Shown in pieces: positions 1-6,743 of a DNA stretch of 6,743 nucleotides; positions within the stretch are counted from its first letter, which is position 1, and each line of letters starts with the position of its first letter. Source of the DNA: a virus (Duplodnaviria; Heunggongvirae; Uroviricota; Caudoviricetes); IMG/VR virus record IMGVR_UViG_3300029104_000056, positions 1 through 6,743 of that record, one strand, 5' to 3'. The notes beneath the pieces are model-generated. The model was not told where the DNA came from and searched no databases. It was given only the letters and a program-made list of their open reading frames with translations. A program made the translations under genes and the position numbers.

Positions 1-104
1 CGGAACTGACGGCCGGGGCAGAAAAACGCCGTCGCCGGAAGAAAAAACTGCGGACGGAGCGTGCGGAAGATAATCCATGGACAACATCAGGAGGCTGGTT
101 GTGA
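1..104 (+). CDS. Large terminase subunit, C-terminal fragment (5' end lies outside the window)
   Basis: The frame with codons at 3-5, 6-8 and so on is open from the window edge to TGA 102-104 and uses typical enterobacterial codons (ctg, gaa, aaa, cgc, cgt). It encodes a basic tail, ...AEKRRRRKKKLRTERAEDNPWTTSGGWL*. It sits directly upstream of the W-like and portal genes, as the A gene does in lambda. Too short for confident homology. Confidence 0.4.
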   Translation, partial: ELTAGAEKRRRRKKKLRTERAEDNPWTTSGGWL

Positions 105-313
105 GCACTGAAGAAGTCAGAGAAATGATACAGCGGTACCGTGAAGCGGAAAGGGCGGTACTGGAGGGGAAGTCTGTCACCTTCAACGGGCAGCAACTGA
201 CGCTGGAAAGCCTTTCTCAGATCCGCGCCGGACGTCAGGAGTGGGAACGCAGGCTTGCCGCGATGGAGAACCGCAGACGGGGAAAACCGGGATTTAAACT
301 GGCGAGGTTTTAA
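101..313 (+). CDS. gpW-like head completion / head-tail joining protein
   Basis: The C-terminus ...AAMENRRRGKPGF resembles the lambda gpW C-terminus (...QRRRGPAGFYV as I recall it). Preferred start is GTG 101, preceded by AGGAGG at 89-94 with a 6-nt spacer and overlapping the terminase stop as GTGA; this gives about 70 aa, similar to gpW (68 aa). The ORF track's in-frame ATG at 77 is the alternative start. Stop is TAA 311-313. Confidence 0.7.
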   Translation: MSTEEVREMIQRYREAERAVLEGKSVTFNGQQLTLESLSQIRAGRQEWERRLAAMENRRRGKPGFKLARF

Positions 314-1807
314 TGGCAATTATCGATGATGTGATAGGCGTGTTTTCCCCCGGATGGAAAGCAGCCAGACTGCGTTCAAGGGCATTAATCATGGCCTATG
401 AGGCGGTGAAAACGACCCGGACACATAAAGCCCGGCGGGAAAATCGCTCTGCTGATCAGCTCAGTAAATACGGTGCGGTTTCCCTGCGGGAGCAGGCCCG
501 TTTTCTGGATATCAATCATGACCTGGTGATTGGTGTGTTTGACAAGCTTGAAGAGCGGGTGATTGGTGCCAGGGGAATTATTGTGGAGCCTCAGCCATTA
601 CGAAAAAACGGGGAAATGGCGGCAGAGCTGGCTGCGGATATCCGCCGGTTGTGGGCTGAATGGTCGGTCAGTCCGGATGTGACAGGGCAGTATACCCGTC
701 CCGTGCTTGAGCGTTTACTGCTGCGGACCTGGCTGCGGGATGGTGAAGTGTTTGCGCAGATGGTCAGTGGGGCGGGAAATGGTCTGGAACGGACGGCGGG
801 AGTGCCATTCTGGCTTGAAGCGATGGAGCCGGATTTTGTTCCCATGCGCAGTGATGAATCCGCCGGGCTGAATCAGGGGGTTTTTCTTGATGAGTGGGGA
901 AGACCGAAAAAATATCTGGTTTATAAAAATTATCCGGTCAGCGGCCGGCAGAGTGATACGAAAGAAATCGTTGCCGGAAAAATGATCCACCTGAAGTTCA
1001 CTCGTCGTCTGCATCAGACGCGAGGCTCATCCATGTTATCGGGGGTGCTGATGCGGATCAGTGCCCTTAAGGAGTATGAGGATGCGGAACTGACGGCAGC
1101 GCGTNNNNNNNNNNNNNNNNNNNNNNAAAGGGGACGGGCAGGACTATGAAGATCCTGGGATCAAAGAGACCGAGCGGGAAGTCCATATCACCCCGGGTAT
1201 TATTTATGACGATTTGCGCAAGGGCGAGGATATCGGCATGGTCAAATCTGACCGTCCTAACCCCAATCTTGAAACCTTTCGTAACGGTCAGCTGCGTGCA
1301 GTAGCTGCAGGCAGTCGTCTGAGTTTTTCCAGTGCGGCGCGTAACTATAACGGTACCTACAGTGCCCAGCGGCAGGAGCTGGTCGAGTCCACCGACGGGT
1401 ATCTGATCCTGCAGGACTGTTTTATTGGCGCGGTAACCCGCCCTGTGTACCGGACATGGCTGAATATGGTGGTTGCGGCAGGTCTGCTGAAAATTCCGGC
1501 AGATGTGGAGATGAAAACGCTATATAACGCGACGTATTCCGGTCCGGTGATGCCGTGGATCGATCCGGTTAAGGAAGCTGAAGCCTGGAGAATTCAGATC
1601 CGGGGTGGTGCAGCGACAGAATCCGACTGGGTTCGGGCCGGAGGGCGCAATCCGGATGAGGTCAAACGTCGCCGCAAGGCTGAAATTGATGAAAACAGCA
1701 GACTGGGGCTGGTCTTTGATACTGACCCCGTCAACGATAAAGGAGGAAACAGTGCCGGAACTGAACGACAGCATCAGCGCGACACCGAAAGCCAGCATGA
1801 AGAATAA
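313..1807 (+). CDS. Phage portal protein (interrupted by an N-run at 1105-1126)
   Basis: ATG 313 overlaps the W stop (TAATG) with GCGAGG at 302-307 upstream. A 278-aa ORF runs into the N-run, and coding resumes at 1127 in a different frame through to TAA 1805-1807 (...GGRNPDEVKRRRKAEIDENSRLGLVFDTDPVNDKGG...). Size (about 500 aa) and position between the W-like gene and the prohead protease fit a portal. The frame change across the Ns reflects unknown gap length, not necessarily a real frameshift. Confidence 0.8.
1105..1126. other. Run of 22 N (assembly or masking gap) inside the portal gene
   Basis: Directly visible. The coding frame differs on the two sides, so the true gap length is unknown. 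Confidence 0.95.
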
Positions 1808-3768
1808 ATCCTGGTTCAGGATGCAGGCTGGGGGGCCGGGTGACGCAGATATTTATATTTATGATGAGATTGGTTTCTGGGGCGTTACCGCGAAGCAGTT
1901 TGTCAGCGAACTGAATGCACTTGGTGATATCACCCACATTAATCTCCATATCAATTCACCGGGTGGCGATGTCTTTGAAGGCATCGCCATTTTTAATGCC
2001 CTGAAAAATCAGGGGGCGACCATTACCGTGTATGTGGATGGCGTTGCCGCCTCGATGGCATCCGTGATTGCGATGGCCGGTGATACGGTCATTATGCCGG
2101 AAAATGCCTTCATGATGATCCATAAGCCATGGGGATTCAGTGGCGGGGATGCTGAGGATATGCGCAGTTATGCCGATTTGCTGGATAAAGTCGAATCGGT
2201 ACTGTTGCCAGCCTATGCGCAGAAAACCGGAAAAACCACCGATGAAATTGCCGCCATGCTGGCGGATGAAACCTGGATGTCCGGTGCTGAATGTCTGGCA
2301 CACGGATTTGCTGACCAGGTGACACCCGCTGTTAAGGCAATGGCATGTATTCAGTCAAAACGTACAGAGGAATTTAAAAAGATGCCGGAATCCATTCGAA
2401 ATATGATTACTCCGCCACGCAACAGTGCTCCACGCGTACAGGATGATGGACCTGCAGCCTCCCGGACGCCAGTGCAGGCAGCAGCACCCGTGGTGGATGA
2501 AAACAGCATCCGTGCGCAGGTCCTGGCAGAGCAAAAAGCGCGTGTAAACGGTATTAATGATCTGTTTGCCATGTTTGGCGGGCGTTATCAGTCGTTGCAG
2601 GCTCAGTGTCTTGCCGATCCTGAATGTTCGCTGGAGCAGGCCCGCGAAAAGCTGTTGAACGAGATGGGGCGCGAGTCCACGCCATCCAATAAAAATACCC
2701 CGGCTCATATTTATGCCGGTAACGGTAATTTTGTGGGGGACGGGATCCGCCAGGCGCTGATGGCGCGCGCCGGGTTTGAAAAAACTGAACGTGATAATGT
2801 CTACAACGGGATGACCCTGCGTGAATATGCCCGTATGTCACTGACTGAACGTGGTATTGGTGTTTCCAGTTATAACCCGATGCAGATGGTCGGTGCGGCG
2901 TTCATACACAGTACGTCTGACTTCGGTAATATTCTGCTGGATGTTGCGAACAAAGCCATTCTGCAGGGCTGGGAAGATGCCCCTGAAACCTATGAACAGT
3001 GGACGCGGAAAGGTCAGTTGTCTGATTTTAAAATTGCCCATCGTGTGGGTATGGGGGGCTTCAGTGCTCTGCGTCAGGTGCGTGAAGGGGCAGAATATAA
3101 ATACGTCACCNNNNNNNNNNATGGCACTGGCGACCTATGGCGAGCTGTTCAGTATCACCCGTCAGGCCATTATCAATGATGATCTGAATATGCTGACCGA
3201 TGTCCCGATGAAGCTGGGCCGTGCGGCGAAATCCACTATTGCCGATCTGGTTTATGCCATTCTGACGTCTAACCCGAAAATCTCCACAGATAATGTAAGT
3301 CTGTTCGATAAAGCGAAACATGCAAACGTACTGGAGAGCGCGGCAATGGACGTGGCATCGCTGGATAAAGCCCGCCAGTTGATGCGCGTTCAGAAAGAGG
3401 GTGAGCGTCATCTGAATATTCGTCCTGCGTTCGTACTGGTACCGACGGCGATGGAGTCTGTTGCTAACCAGGTCATTCGCTCCTCAAGTGTCAAGGGGGC
3501 TGACATTAACGCCGGTATTATTAACCCGGTGAAAGATTTTGCGACCGTTATTGCAGAGCCTCGTCTTGATGATAACAGCCAGACCACCTTCTACCTGGCT
3601 GCGTCCAAAGGCTCCGATACGATTGAAGTGGCTTATCTCAACGGTGTGGATACGCCATATATTGATCAGATGGAGGGCTTCAGTGTGGATGGCGTGACAA
3701 CGAAAGTGCGTATTGACGCTGGTGTTGCGCCAGTTGATCACCGCGGCCTGGTGAAATGTACGGCGTAA
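1752..3768 (+). CDS. ClpP-like prohead protease fused to a linker/scaffold-like segment and a major capsid protein domain (interrupted by an N-run at 3111-3120)
   Basis: Start is GTG 1752 with AGGAGG at 1741-1746 and a 5-nt spacer, lying inside the 3' end of the portal gene. The N-terminal domain has ClpP-type motifs: VDGVAASMAS (Ser codon 2052-2054) and MMIHKPWGFSGG (His codon 2121-2123). A Pro/Ala-rich and predicted helical segment follows (about 2400-2700), then a capsid-like C-terminal region ending KCTA with TAA 3766-3768. The frame changes across the 10-N run, but coding sequence resumes immediately at 3121. Confidence 0.8.
3111..3120. other. Run of 10 N (assembly or masking gap) inside the capsid domain
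   Basis: Directly visible. The frame differs on the two sides (codons at 3108-3110 before, 3121-3123 after). Confidence 0.95.
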
Positions 3769-3791
3769 ACGTCGCAGACAACAACTCTGAT

Positions 3792-3811
3792 GGCCCGTAA
3801 GGGCTTTTTTT
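3792..3811 (+). terminator. Putative intrinsic terminator after the protease-capsid gene
   Basis: A short GC stem GCCC(GTAA)GGGC at 3793-3804 is followed by a run of seven T at 3805-3811, 25 nt after the capsid stop. Confidence 0.5.
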
Positions 3812-3822
3812 GTACCTGAAAT

Positions 3823-3841
3823 CAGCCCCTGAACGGGGCTG
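3823..3841 (+). promoter_or_regulatory. Perfect 7-bp hairpin just upstream of the next gene's ribosome-binding site
   Basis: CAGCCCC (3823-3829), loop TGAAC, GGGGCTG (3835-3841). There is no T-run after it. GGAG at 3845-3848 and ATG 3855 follow. Confidence 0.4.
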
Positions 3842-3854
3842 TGCGGAGACAGTT

Positions 3855-4178
3855 ATGGCAAAGAATTTTGTAGAAGAAGGAAAAACGGTGGCGATTGTTG
3901 CAAGTGCAGCCATCAGCAGCGGAGATCTGGTGCAGGTGGGTGATGTTTTTGCGGTGGCGCTGACCGATATTCCACAGGGAGAAACAGGCGACGGCATAAC
4001 CGAAGGTGTGTTTATGCTGCCTAAGCTGAAAACGGATGACATGAAAACGGGTAAGAAGGTTTATCTGAAGTCAGGAAAAGTTCAGCTGACTAACAGCGGC
4101 TCTGATCCGCTGGTCGGGGTTGTCTGGGCAGATGCCGGAACCAGTGCAGAAGAAGTGCCGGTAAAACTCAATGTCTGA
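3855..4178 (+). CDS. Small head-associated protein, DUF2190-like (possible decoration or cement protein)
   Basis: ATG 3855 has GGAG at 3845-3848 with a 6-nt spacer. The 107-aa product MAKNFVEEGKTV...GDGITEGVFMLPK... resembles the DUF2190 proteins found next to capsid genes. The ORF track's upstream ATG at 3810 lies inside the terminator and lacks an RBS. Stop is TGA 4176-4178. Confidence 0.55.
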   Translation: MAKNFVEEGKTVAIVASAAISSGDLVQVGDVFAVALTDIPQGETGDGITEGVFMLPKLKTDDMKTGKKVYLKSGKVQLTNSGSDPLVGVVWADAGTSAEEVPVKLNV

Positions 4179-4446
4179 TCCCTTTTCCCGGCTGGCAGCG
4201 CGTATGGATGCGATCACGGTCAGAAAGATGGGAAAGACAGCCTCGATTAATGATGTCGATATGACTGTGATCCCGGGAGAAACACTGGCAGAGCTGAATG
4301 CTCTGTCCGGACCTGCGGTCTCTCTGGTGGTGTTTTCTTCGGGATACCGCCCACGGCGCGGGGATCGCGTTGTTTATGACGGACAACAATGGACGGTCAC
4401 ACGGCATGAACGTTTTAACGGTAAGCCAATGATCTTTATTGAGTAA
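4171..4446 (+). CDS. gpFII-like head-tail joining protein
   Basis: The 91-aa product has an N-terminus (FSRLAARMDAITVRKMGKTASIN) and an RRGD...W.V.R segment (PRRGDRVVYDGQQWTVTRHE) that parallel lambda gpFII as I recall it. It overlaps the upstream gene by 8 nt. Stop is TAA 4444-4446. Confidence 0.7.
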   Translation: MSDPFSRLAARMDAITVRKMGKTASINDVDMTVIPGETLAELNALSGPAVSLVVFSSGYRPRRGDRVVYDGQQWTVTRHERFNGKPMIFIE

Positions 4447-4457
4447 TGAGGTGTGGG

Positions 4458-5036
4458 ATGAAGGGGCTTGAGAATGCCATCCGCAATCTGAACAGCCTTG
4501 ATACCCGTATGGTGCCACAGGCCAGCGCATGGGCGATAAACCGTGTGGCACAGAAAGCGGTCTCGGTTGCCACCCGGCAGGTTGCCGGGAATACCGTTGC
4601 GGGAGATAACCAGGTGAAAGGGATCCCCCTGAAACTGGTACGTCAGCGTGTCCGGGTGTTTAAAGCCAGTCCGTCAGGAAAAATGACGGCCAGGATCCGC
4701 GTTAACCGGGGCAATCTGCCCGCCATTAAGCTGGGGACAGCCCGGGTCAGACTGGCCCGGCGTGGTGGAAAACTGCAGTACCGTGGCAGTGTGCTGAAGG
4801 TGGGTAAATATCTTTTCCGGGATGCGTTTATTCAGCAACTGGCGAATGGTCGCTGGCATGTGATGCGACGTATTGATGGCAAAAATCGTTACCCCATTGA
4901 TGTGGTGAAAATCCCGCTGTCCGGACCGCTGACACAGGCATTTGAAGATGCCCGCGACCACATCATTGCTGCGGAAATGCCGAAACAGCTGGGGTATGCA
5001 CTGAAACAACAACTGAGGTTATGGCTGACCCGATGA
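4458..5036 (+). CDS. gpZ-like tail completion protein
   Basis: Strong resemblance to lambda gpZ: KGLENAIRNL, WAINRVA, IRVNRGNLPAIKLG, AFIQQLANGRWHVMRRIDGKNRYPIDVVKIP, LGYALKQQLR. Start ATG 4458 is preferred, with GAGG at 4448-4451 and a 6-nt spacer, matching the lambda MAIKGLE start. The in-frame ATG at 4446 (TAATG overlap) is the alternative. Stop is TGA 5034-5036. Confidence 0.85.
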   Translation: MKGLENAIRNLNSLDTRMVPQASAWAINRVAQKAVSVATRQVAGNTVAGDNQVKGIPLKLVRQRVRVFKASPSGKMTARIRVNRGNLPAIKLGTARVRLARRGGKLQYRGSVLKVGKYLFRDAFIQQLANGRWHVMRRIDGKNRYPIDVVKIPLSGPLTQAFEDARDHIIAAEMPKQLGYALKQQLRLWLTR

Positions 5037-5434
5037 ACCGACATACACAAATCCGCCAGGTCGTACTGGCACGCCTTCGGGAACAGTGTGGAGACAGCGC
5101 CACGTTTTTTGACGGGCTTCCGGCATTTGTTGATGCGCAGGAACTGCCTGCCGTGGCGGTGTGGCTGAGTGATGCTCAGTACACCGGAAAAATGACGGAT
5201 GAAGATGACTGGCAGGCTGTTCTGCATATTGCTGTCTTCATCCGGGCACAGGCACCGGATTCAGAGCTGGATATGTGGATGGAGAGCACCATTTTCCCGG
5301 CCCTGAATGATGTACCAGCACTTTCCGGACTCATCGACACCCTGATCCCACTCGGTTTTAACTATCAACGTGATAATGAGATGGCCACCTGGGCGATGGC
5401 GGAAATCACGTACCAGATCACGTACACGAATTAA
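5033..5434 (+). CDS. gpU-like tail terminator protein
   Basis: Strong resemblance to lambda gpU: ATFFDG, ELPAVAVWL, DWQA.LHI.VF..AQ.PDSELD.WMES, ITYQITY. ATG 5033 overlaps the Z stop (ATGA) and aligns best with the lambda N-terminus. The in-frame ATG at 5021 given by the ORF track is the alternative. Stop is TAA 5432-5434. Confidence 0.85.
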   Translation: MNRHTQIRQVVLARLREQCGDSATFFDGLPAFVDAQELPAVAVWLSDAQYTGKMTDEDDWQAVLHIAVFIRAQAPDSELDMWMESTIFPALNDVPALSGLIDTLIPLGFNYQRDNEMATWAMAEITYQITYTN

Positions 5435-5444
5435 GGAGGTGGTA

Positions 5445-6188
5445 ATGACCACACCAAATCCACTGGCAAAAACGAAAGGTGCGGGAACGACGTTCTGGAT
5501 GTATACCGGCAAGGGCGATGCGTTTGTGAACCCTTTATCGGACACTGACTGGCTGCGTCTTGCGATGGTGAAGGATCTGCAACCTGGCGAAATGACCGCT
5601 GATGCAGAAGATGACACTTATCTCGATGATGAAGATGCAGACTGGAAAACGACAACCCAGGGGCAGAAATCAGTCGGTGATACTTCGGCGACGCTGGCCT
5701 GGCGTCCGGGGGACAGCGGGCAGAAAAAACTGGTTCAGTTGTTCGACTCCGGTGAAGTCTGCGCGTTTCGTATCAAATATCCCAACGGTACTGTTGATGT
5801 TTTCCGTGGCTGGCTGAGTTCACTGGGTAAAACCATTGCTTCAAAAGACGTGATGACCCGCACAGTGAAAATCAGCGGTGTGGGGCGTCCGTATCTGGCA
5901 GAGGAAGGCACTGAAACCGTGGGCGTTACCGGGCTGACGGTGGCACCGGCATCTGCCAGTGTAAAAGTGGGAGCAACCACCACGCTGACCTTTACAGTAA
6001 AACCTGACGGAGCCAGTGACAAAGCGATCAGTGTGCATTCGACAGATCCACAGACTGCCACGGTGACCCTGAACGGGCTTGTGGCCACGGTGAAAGGCGT
6101 GAAGCAGGGCAGTGTCAGCATTGTGGGCATGACTTCTGACGGCGATTTTGTGGCAGTGGCTACGGTGGCTGTCAGCGCCGCAGGTTAA
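5445..6188 (+). CDS. gpV-like major tail protein with a C-terminal Ig-like domain
   Basis: AAGGAGGTGG at 5433-5442 precedes ATG 5445. The product is close to lambda gpV: KGAGTT.W.Y.G.GD...NPLSD.DW.RLA.VKDL.PGE.TA, the acidic YLDDEDADW block, PNGTVDVFRGW.SS.GK, TRTVK..GVGRP. The C-terminal part (about 5925-6185) is rich in T/V/S/A with alternating beta-like pattern, as in the gpV Ig-like domain. Stop is TAA 6186-6188. Confidence 0.9.
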   Translation: MTTPNPLAKTKGAGTTFWMYTGKGDAFVNPLSDTDWLRLAMVKDLQPGEMTADAEDDTYLDDEDADWKTTTQGQKSVGDTSATLAWRPGDSGQKKLVQLFDSGEVCAFRIKYPNGTVDVFRGWLSSLGKTIASKDVMTRTVKISGVGRPYLAEEGTETVGVTGLTVAPASASVKVGATTTLTFTVKPDGASDKAISVHSTDPQTATVTLNGLVATVKGVKQGSVSIVGMTSDGDFVAVATVAVSAAG

Positions 6189-6208
6189 CAGGACGATACT
6201 CATCATTT

Positions 6209-6232
6209 GCCCCGGTTATCCGGGGCTTTTTT
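6209..6232 (+). terminator. Intrinsic terminator after the major tail gene
   Basis: Perfect 7-bp GC-rich stem GCCCCGG (6209-6215), loop TTAT, CCGGGGC (6220-6226), followed by TTTTTT at 6227-6232. Confidence 0.7.
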
Positions 6233-6248
6233 GCAGGTGGAGAACATG

Positions 6249-6635
6249 ATGTTTCTGAAACAGGGCACGTTTAATTATGAAAAGCAGTCCGTGGTGCTCA
6301 GTGAGCTGTCCGGGCTGCAGAGAATTGAATATCTGGCGTTTGTTCAGCAGCGAACGGCAAAGTTTGATGCCGAAGAGGGAGAACTGCCGGAGGCTGAACG
6401 ACAGATTGCTTTTCTGCGGATGGGGATGGATATCAATGCCTGGCTGGTTTCCCGCTCACTGTGGAATGCGGAACAGTCTCAGGATGTTGAGACGCTTTGC
6501 GCATCCGTTATTACAACATGGTCGTATGATGCCCTGGGAACGGGGGCGGAGATGGTTCTGTCGCTGAGCGGTATGGGAGCCATTGAGAATGCCGGGGATT
6601 TGGAGCATGAGGTGCTGACGCCGGAAAAGTCCTGA
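6249..6635 (+). CDS. gpG-like tail assembly chaperone
   Basis: The N-terminus MFLK...VVLSELSGLQRIEYLAF parallels lambda gpG (MFLK...TLSELSALQRIEHLAL), and LSLSGM matches RLSGM. GGAG at 6239-6242 is 6 nt from ATG 6249; ATG 6246 is an in-frame alternative. Stop is TGA 6633-6635. Confidence 0.85.
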   Translation: MFLKQGTFNYEKQSVVLSELSGLQRIEYLAFVQQRTAKFDAEEGELPEAERQIAFLRMGMDINAWLVSRSLWNAEQSQDVETLCASVITTWSYDALGTGAEMVLSLSGMGAIENAGDLEHEVLTPEKS

Positions 6636-6743
6636 CGCGGGAAATGCAGTTTGTCATGCGGCTTGCCCGGGAGTTCAGGCGGGCAGACTGGCGGCGGATG
6701 CTGTCGGAAATGTCGGCCACTGAGCTTGGTGAGTGGGGCGATT
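6611..6743 (+). CDS. gpT frame: start of the tail assembly protein, likely expressed as a G-T frameshift fusion (3' end lies outside the window)
   Basis: The -1 frame reads GADAGKVLTREMQFVMRLAREFRRADWRRMLSEMSATELGEWGD and is open to the window edge. It overlaps the last 25 nt of G and sits where T sits in lambda. Confidence 0.6.
6623..6629 (+). promoter_or_regulatory. Candidate -1 frameshift slippery site for the gpG-gpT fusion
   Basis: GGAAAAG read as G GAA AAG in the G frame, placed just before the G stop as lambda's G GGA AAG is. The -1 frame is open only from 6611 (a TGA at 6608-6610 closes it upstream) and runs to the window end. Confidence 0.5.

Follow-up and report, generated by a model that had tools for sequence, protein, structure and literature searches.

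In a lambdoid phage, the 86-nt late-operon spacer between the major capsid gene and the capsid cement gene carries two RNA hairpins with a conserved linker between them. By every sequence criterion hairpin 1 is a terminator, and the pattern of mutations strongly supports hairpin 2 as an RNA structure that is kept by compensating changes while its sequence is free to vary. We propose that a leaky terminator and a barrier to RNA decay together set the expression of the capsid gene relative to the genes downstream, and we give this account as a whole a probability of about 0.5. The spacer most likely belongs to a familiar class, the intercistronic terminator/stabiliser cassettes, of which the second half (hairpin 2) appears, within a limited literature search, not to have been described before.

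The window, i.e. the whole stretch of 6,743 nt that we analysed, comes from the late operon of a group of lambdoid phages, mEp460/cdtI/phi458. Megablast aligned this group to positions 1183-6743 with about 95% identity, and phages of the Stx/VT1-Sakai type to positions 1-3872, the head genes, with 87% identity. The window is a mosaic in that the mEp460 group matches it only from 1183 on and the Stx/VT1-Sakai group matches it at 1-3872; the left joint (1183) lies in the portal gene, near a run of masked bases. A match to the window was present in 3898 of 5426 complete E. coli genomes.

According to the RefSeq annotation of mEp460 and to Pfam, a gpW-like adaptor gene is followed by the portal gene, by a fusion of ClpP-like protease, scaffold and major capsid protein, and by the 86-nt spacer. 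After the spacer come the gene for the 107-aa cement protein, neck and tail genes, the major tail gene and a second terminator. The fusion gene is homologous to mEp460 gp05, which RefSeq names 'ClpP-like prohead protease/major capsid protein fusion protein', and the mEp460 counterpart of the cement protein, gp06, is annotated 'head decoration'. A Q-like antiterminator is encoded upstream of the lysis genes in mEp460, which puts the spacer within a late transcript that depends on Q. The portal and capsid genes gave the impression of frameshifted pseudogenes, which we rejected because the breaks in the reading frames are caused by two masked runs of N, at 1105-1126 (22 bases) and 3111-3120 (10 bases); mEp460 has 21 nt opposite the latter. 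The features on which the analysis rests are the following:

1821-3768, plus strand: fusion gene of ClpP-like prohead protease, scaffold and major capsid protein (Pfam CLP_protease and Phage_capsid_4), stop codon TAA at 3766-3768
3769-3791, plus strand: variable spacer from the stop codon to hairpin 1, kept in length (20-31 nt) and not in sequence
3792-3805, plus strand: hairpin 1, GCCC (3793-3796) paired with GGGC (3801-3804), GNRA loop GUAA (3797-3800), optional wobble pair G3792-U3805, dG -6.7 kcal/mol
3803-3813, plus strand: GC(U)7RU terminator core, made of G3803 C3804, U3805-U3811 and G3812 U3813
3814-3822, plus strand: conserved linker ACCUGAAAU between the two conserved stems; with the preceding RU and the following C the consensus is AUACCUGAAAUC
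3823-3841, plus strand: hairpin 2, CAGCCCC (3823-3829), loop UGAAC (3830-3834), GGGGCUG (3835-3841), perfect 7 bp, dG -13.9 kcal/mol
3845-3848, plus strand: Shine-Dalgarno (SD) sequence GGAG for the cement gene; 3 nt separate it from hairpin 2 and 6 nt from the ATG
3855-4178, plus strand: capsid cement (head decoration) gene, 107 aa, PF09956 Phage_cement_2 (formerly DUF2190), E = 2.8e-20
6209-6232, plus strand: second terminator, GCCCCGG-UUAU-CCGGGGC-U6, after the major tail gene and given as context; annotated as a terminator in mEp460

The spacer runs from the stop of the capsid fusion (3768) to the cement ATG (3855-3857). The initial annotation had placed hairpins at 3792-3811 and 3823-3841, and both are present there. 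Both also appear in the minimum free energy and centroid structures of RNAfold, the folding check that it had suggested. It had described the second as a perfect 7-bp stem ending 3 nt before the GGAG, which matches the sequence exactly. The stem of hairpin 1 is also present, with the qualification that its core has only four G-C pairs and that a fifth pair, G3792-U3805, takes the first U of the tract. A terminator scan lists 3792-3805 together with its T tail. The run of seven T (3805-3811) and hairpin 2 are separated by 11 nt (3812-3822).

Hairpins of this quality are rare by chance. The window contains three hairpins with a perfect stem of 7 bp or more, of which 6 or more are G-C pairs, against 0.47 ± 0.81 in 200 dinucleotide shuffles, an approximately sixfold excess, and the number expected in an 86-nt spacer is about 0.006. 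A third perfect G+C-rich hairpin of 7 bp (CCCGGCA-GGU-UGCCGGG, 4573-4589) lies inside the gpZ-like minor tail gene (4446-5036). Neither a curated RNA family (Rfam 15 covariance models, E up to 1) nor a tRNA or tmRNA was found anywhere in the window, and the stems, of 4 and 7 bp, are shorter than the approximately 20 bp of double-stranded RNA that mark an RNase III site. A function on the minus strand was rejected, since neither hairpin is followed by a T run on that strand and the bias of G·U pairs, given below, favours the plus strand.

Lists of open reading frames extend the cement gene by 15 codons through hairpin 2, from a TTG at 3810 that is in frame with it; most relatives have TTT at the matching position, so this start is not conserved. 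In the record of phage Eeyore (L007; 429-998, minus strand) a 570-nt 'hypothetical protein' is annotated across the spacer and the cement gene, and the cement gene itself is unannotated. This minus-strand call is probably a mis-call, and a comparable spurious minus-strand reading frame is present in the window at 3680-4042.

We collected relatives of the spacer from three sources: a BLAST search of phage records (Gifsy-2, Fels-1, Klebsiella Kp4865-4, Providencia PSTCR8lys, mEp213, Eeyore, Flotzy, ASU11), a DNA pattern scan of IMG/VR, and a scan of GTDB genomes for the cement protein with an alignment of five sequences as query, which is independent of the spacer sequence. For comparisons between lineages we used 22 lineages with pairwise identities below 85%. 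Every Enterobacterales locus with a cement gene after the capsid gene had the same layout. Its first half consists of the stop codon, 20-31 variable nt, GCCC-N4-GGGC and U7. The second half consists of (A/G)U(A/G)(C/U)CU(G/A)AA(A/U)(U/C)C, a hairpin, 0-3 nt and the SD sequence. The hosts are Escherichia, Salmonella, Klebsiella, Citrobacter, Enterobacter and Kluyvera, and further Pantoea, Sodalis, Edwardsiella, Proteus, Morganella and Providencia. Hairpin 2 is absent in the distant relatives from Microbulbifer, Desulfovibrionaceae and Acidobacteriota; in the Microbulbifer locus the spacer still holds a terminator.

Two loci from Morganella psychrotolerans (L150 and L152) carry a MazE/MazF-like toxin-antitoxin pair (positions 11-570) directly upstream of the cement gene. 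The pair has its own long terminator and is a moron at the capsid/cement junction. Both loci keep the linker, as ATGCCTGAAAAT, with a degenerate hairpin 2. We rejected the presence of the cassette in other gene contexts, because pattern matches outside the capsid/cement junction were unrelated terminators, e.g. beside the integrase gene in L016 and L093. The sRNA-17 of E. coli K1, which lies in an mEp460-like prophage, was rejected as a product of the spacer, since the method behind it took intergenic regions longer than 1 kb.

The initial annotation had called hairpin 1 terminator-like. This description held up well: four related records (mEp460, mEp213, mEp043 and Ayreon) annotate the hairpin as a rho-independent terminator, the match to GC(U)7RU is exact, and the features specific to termination are under strong purifying selection. 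Termination was mapped on about 10^4 templates in a 2026 preprint, and strong sites carry GC(U)7RU, where the GC at -11/-10 closes the stem and the RU at -2/-1 ends the transcript; mutations in GC or RU nearly abolish termination despite an intact hairpin and U tract (10.64898/2026.05.29.728758). In the window a G+C-rich hairpin (GCCC-GUAA-GGGC, only 4 bp) stands immediately upstream of the U tract, and the GC at the edge of the bubble (G3803 C3804) and the RU (G3812 U3813) are both in place. From the exact match the main RNA 3' end is therefore predicted at U3813.

The U tract was exactly seven long in 55 of 55 distinct relatives and the whole GC(U)7RU was perfect in 49 of them, figures to be read with the fact that many relatives were ascertained with a pattern fixing GGGC-U7 and part of the linker. 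By reading of the loci that were ascertained through the protein, the motif was perfect in 19 of 21. The stem and U7 had a majority fraction of 1.0 over the 22 lineages, and the stem was invariant in 67 distinct relatives, while the upstream spacer and the loop varied, the latter with at least 12 different sequences among the 22 lineages.

The hairpin is as weak as it is constant. Its dG lies between -5.4 and -6.7 kcal/mol in all 22 lineages and it never exceeds 4-5 pairs, which is consistent with selection for a leaky site. With -6.7 kcal/mol and 4 bp, the copy in the window is weaker than the cut-off of -7 kcal/mol used to select candidate terminators in the mapping study (10.64898/2026.05.29.728758). 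From the essentially invariant stem, U7 and RU combined with a minimal hairpin we infer selection for a real but leaky terminator. The proposal of the initial annotation, that partial termination may lower expression downstream relative to capsid, fits such a weak 4-bp stem but must be squared with Q-mediated antitermination. As an element, hairpin 1 is of a known and already annotated kind and is an unusually clean example of GC(U)7RU. The terminator at 6209-6232 is stronger, with seven G-C pairs and U6, and the next SD sequence follows it directly. It has neither the linker nor a second hairpin, and the linker and hairpin 2 are therefore specific to the capsid/cement junction.

Polymerase modified by Q should pass intrinsic terminators, as with the Q proteins of lambda and phage 21, and hairpin 1 may therefore do little in lytic growth. 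Its main place of action could instead be the lysogen, or polymerase without Q, where it would insulate the cement-to-tail block from spurious or leak-through transcription; it would be read through when transcription is driven by Q. We consider this possible, with odds well short of even. It overlaps with our main explanation as far as hairpin 1 is concerned. The strictly conserved features (GC, exactly U7, RU) act on the polymerase and not on the stability of the RNA, the operon is Q-dependent, and the same alternative was offered for a terminator of phage L (PMC8022706). However, it gives no role to hairpin 2 or to the conserved linker. Nor does it account for the minimal strength of hairpin 1 in all lineages, as a longer stem ought to make a better insulator.

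The linker is much more conserved than synonymous codon positions. Over the 12 columns that follow the U tract the majority-base fraction in the 22 lineages was 0.89, compared to 0.59 at third codon positions taken from the flanking genes. The first two of these columns are the RU of the terminator; the other approximately ten read (A/G)(C/U)CU(G/A)AA(A/U)(U/C)C. RNase E prefers RN|WUU. The linker resembles such a target only loosely, and the U two nt after the putative cut is missing in the mEp213, ASU11 and Sodalis types.

Hairpin 2 is conserved in a different way. At the same place we found the stem types CAGCCCC/GGGGCUG, CCGGCAC/GUGCCGG, CUGGCUC/GGGCCAG and CCGGUGC/GCAUCGG, as well as CAGGCUCC/GGAGCCUG and GGCCUCUC/GAGAGGCC. 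In a covariance-model alignment of 67 distinct sequences, six of the seven pairs had changes on both sides and 89.5% of the cells were paired. The covariation score in this alignment was 0.265, compared to 0.107 ± 0.010 in shuffles, a difference that is inflated by the relatedness of the sequences, many of which were also ascertained with the pattern named above. When the partner was slid by 1-3 columns as a control, the score was at most 0.077. A plain MAFFT alignment, built without reference to the structure, still gave changes in five of seven pairs and a score of 0.190 vs 0.115, and RNAalifold on its own recovered hairpin 1 as well as the hairpin 2 core. There were 29 G·U or U·G cells and only 7 A·C or C·A cells, which places the structure in the sense RNA rather than in the DNA or the antisense strand.

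The mean dG of hairpin 2 is -12.4 kcal/mol and its loops are often UUCG, another UNCG, or GNRA. Neither loop nor stem is conserved in sequence, which argues for a purely structural role. Its 3' end lies 0-3 nt from the SD sequence in 22 of 22 lineages, whatever the length of the stem. These results suggest that hairpin 2 with the linker is a well-supported conserved RNA element, for which a limited literature search returned no description.

Taken together, we propose that the 86-nt spacer is an intercistronic cassette for tuning expression within a Q-antiterminated late operon. Hairpin 1 with U7-RU would be a genuine, deliberately minimal intrinsic terminator that stops RNA polymerase around U3813, efficiently when the polymerase lacks Q and only in a fraction of passages when it is Q-modified. 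The outcome would be more capsid message than downstream message, and a hairpin-capped 3' end on the capsid mRNA. On the read-through RNA, hairpin 2 would be a sequence-independent and very stable stem-loop set against the cement ribosome binding site (RBS). There it may act as a decay barrier that blocks 3'-to-5' exonucleases coming from downstream and gives the capsid segment a shield that hairpin 1 is too weak to provide. Once the conserved A/U-rich single-stranded linker had been cut by an endonuclease (probably RNase E), hairpin 2 would also be a protective 5' stem-loop on the cement-to-tail segment. In this way it would uncouple the fate of that segment from the fate of the capsid segment.

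Two further points sit uneasily with this account. If lambda gpD is a guide, the cement protein is probably required in amounts similar to those of the capsid protein, and such a demand would fit poorly with lowered expression immediately upstream of the cement gene. Furthermore, the tight spacing of 0-3 nt between hairpin 2 and the SD sequence is explained by neither of the proposed stabilising roles. The constant spacing, whatever the stem length, hints at a role in translation. Hairpin 2 could control initiation on the cement gene as a platform or standby element at the mRNA exit side of the ribosome, it could bring the CCU of the linker up to the SD sequence, or it could insulate the SD sequence from long-range pairing. 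The initial annotation had offered hairpin 2 as a processing or stability element or as a modulator of ribosome access to the RBS. Its standing as a functional RNA element gained strong support from the compensatory covariation; the RBS-access option found no consistent in-silico support in the 22 lineages.

In the fold of the window, C3816-U3817-G3818 of the linker pair with C3844-G3845-G3846, and the mean probability that a nucleotide of the SD sequence pairs with the linker is 0.47. Across the 22 lineages, however, the mean linker-SD pairing probability is only 0.10, i.e. no consistent pairing was found, and the base preceding the SD sequence does not covary with the G/A position of the linker. 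Partition-function calculations on the same lineages gave an SD accessibility of 0.36 for the wild type, 0.38 for a mutant of the 5' arm and 0.25 for a mutant of the 3' arm, which is an inconsistent effect. On account of this inconsistency, an anti-SD role of the linker CCU and insulation of the SD sequence by hairpin 2 were both rejected. Towards a translational role of hairpin 2 in general, the modelled accessibilities are neither support nor exclusion, and we consider such a role doubtful.

The linker and hairpin 2 could also be a dedicated, hitherto undescribed module that generates an additional mRNA 5' end within the late operon, either by a site-specific endonucleolytic cut or by a regulated start. 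The block from cement to tail tube would then be expressed, stabilised or regulated apart from the capsid gene, possibly in lysogens. We regard this as unlikely. Its regulated-start version is hinted at by the HilA-responsive STM1034-8 block of Gifsy-2, as far as the published target list could be accessed. An outright promoter or regulated start in the spacer, with hairpin 2 as the 5'-terminal stem-loop of a separate transcript from cement to major tail, is less probable still. In Salmonella 14028s, over-expression of HilA led to a list of likely HilA targets that includes STM14_1174-8 of Gifsy-2, and the capsid gene STM14_1173 is not on the accessible part of that list (PMC5013294). These five genes run from cement to major tail, and their homologue in the window is bounded by two terminators; SL1344_0973 and 0974, but not 0972, occur in another list of differentially expressed genes. 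A HilA listing with the cement-to-tail genes and without the capsid gene would place a transcript boundary in the spacer of Gifsy-2.

Against such a start, a scan of both strands for sigma-70 promoters (-35/-10 hexamers, A required as the second and T as the sixth base of the -10) gave no site in the window, and by reading of the alignment the linker has no conserved TANNNT. A promoter in the spacer on either strand was rejected on these grounds. [quoted passage not shown]

Two further readings are very improbable. Hairpin 2 could be an operator through which a phage protein (free cement, or scaffold/capsid) autoregulates cement synthesis, in analogy to the coat-protein operators of RNA phages and to the autoregulation of P22 scaffold; it is a stable hairpin that adjoins the SD sequence and its sequence type follows the phage lineage, but loop and stem are unconstrained even in close relatives, the UUCG and GNRA tetraloops are generic, and neither flanking protein has an RNA-binding domain. 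Alternatively, the conserved block could be a recombination 'boundary sequence' for swapping head against neck/tail modules, with incidental hairpins, as the end of the Stx/VT1-Sakai similarity at 3872, just past the spacer, and a few discordant pairs of loci (e.g. L017/L147, with 0.71 identity upstream and 0.91 downstream) might suggest; however, the identities of the upstream and downstream flanks correlate with r = 0.94 over 92 loci, which makes such a joint unlikely, and recombination would produce neither compensatory changes nor a G·U bias.

With the leaky terminator and decay barrier as the preferred account, the cassette bears on several questions. Hairpin 1 is a natural example of the newly proposed GC(U)7RU rule, which selection has kept unchanged throughout an order of hosts without strengthening the minimal hairpin, and this makes it a candidate for a tuned, leaky terminator. 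The RNA biology of lambdoid late operons has been little mapped, and hairpin 2 with the linker adds to it a cis-acting element supported by covariation. The cassette is present in prophages of most E. coli genomes and also in Gifsy-2 and Fels-1, and the head module that carries it is shared by the window and by Stx1a-, Stx2a- and Stx2d-converting phages. It also makes the role of terminators inside late operons, a question raised with phage L (PMC8022706), testable with simple compensatory mutants.

Known systems resemble the cassette in its parts. Like the mapped GC(U)7RU terminators (10.64898/2026.05.29.728758), hairpin 1 has a G-C stem that ends in GC, followed by seven U and GU (AU in most relatives); unlike them, it has a stem of only four G-C pairs. 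With -6.7 kcal/mol this stem is among the weakest of known terminators, its operon is Q-antiterminated, and its activity is a predicted one. The genome of phage L has a terminator inside the late operon behind the procapsid module of P22/L; what such terminators do was described as unknown, and partial termination or the blocking of spurious non-antiterminated transcription was suggested (PMC8022706). Hairpin 1 shares with the P22/L, T7, phiX174 and f1 terminators its place directly after the most abundantly needed structural gene, and partial termination and/or a stable 3' end have been proposed for them. In T7, phiX174 and f1 these intra-operon terminators are T-phi after gene 10, TF after gene F and the terminator after gene VIII, respectively. 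The difference here is the conserved linker and the second, covarying hairpin that abuts the next RBS, an arrangement for which the limited literature search returned no description.

In HK022, the put antitermination RNA consists of two stem-loops with conserved features, one nucleotide apart, just after the early promoters. It resembles the cassette as a pair of adjacent hairpins in a lambdoid phage transcript. Here, in contrast, 17 nt lie between the stems (3805-3822) instead of a single unpaired nucleotide, the first hairpin is a terminator with U7, and there is no Rfam match.

The closest counterparts of hairpin 2 are the protective stem-loops of polycistronic mRNAs, such as the 5' hairpin of ompA, the REP hairpins of malEFG, the intercistronic hairpins of puf and the processing of papBA. 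Like these, hairpin 2 is stable, independent of sequence and intercistronic, and it stands beside an A/U-rich single strand, which is the anatomy of a decay barrier with an RNase E site. It differs in that it lies 0-3 nt from the SD sequence, is not a REP element and would have a processed end that is hypothetical here. The ompA type of 5' stem-loop would be compatible with this anatomy only if a cut or a start falls within 3814-3822.
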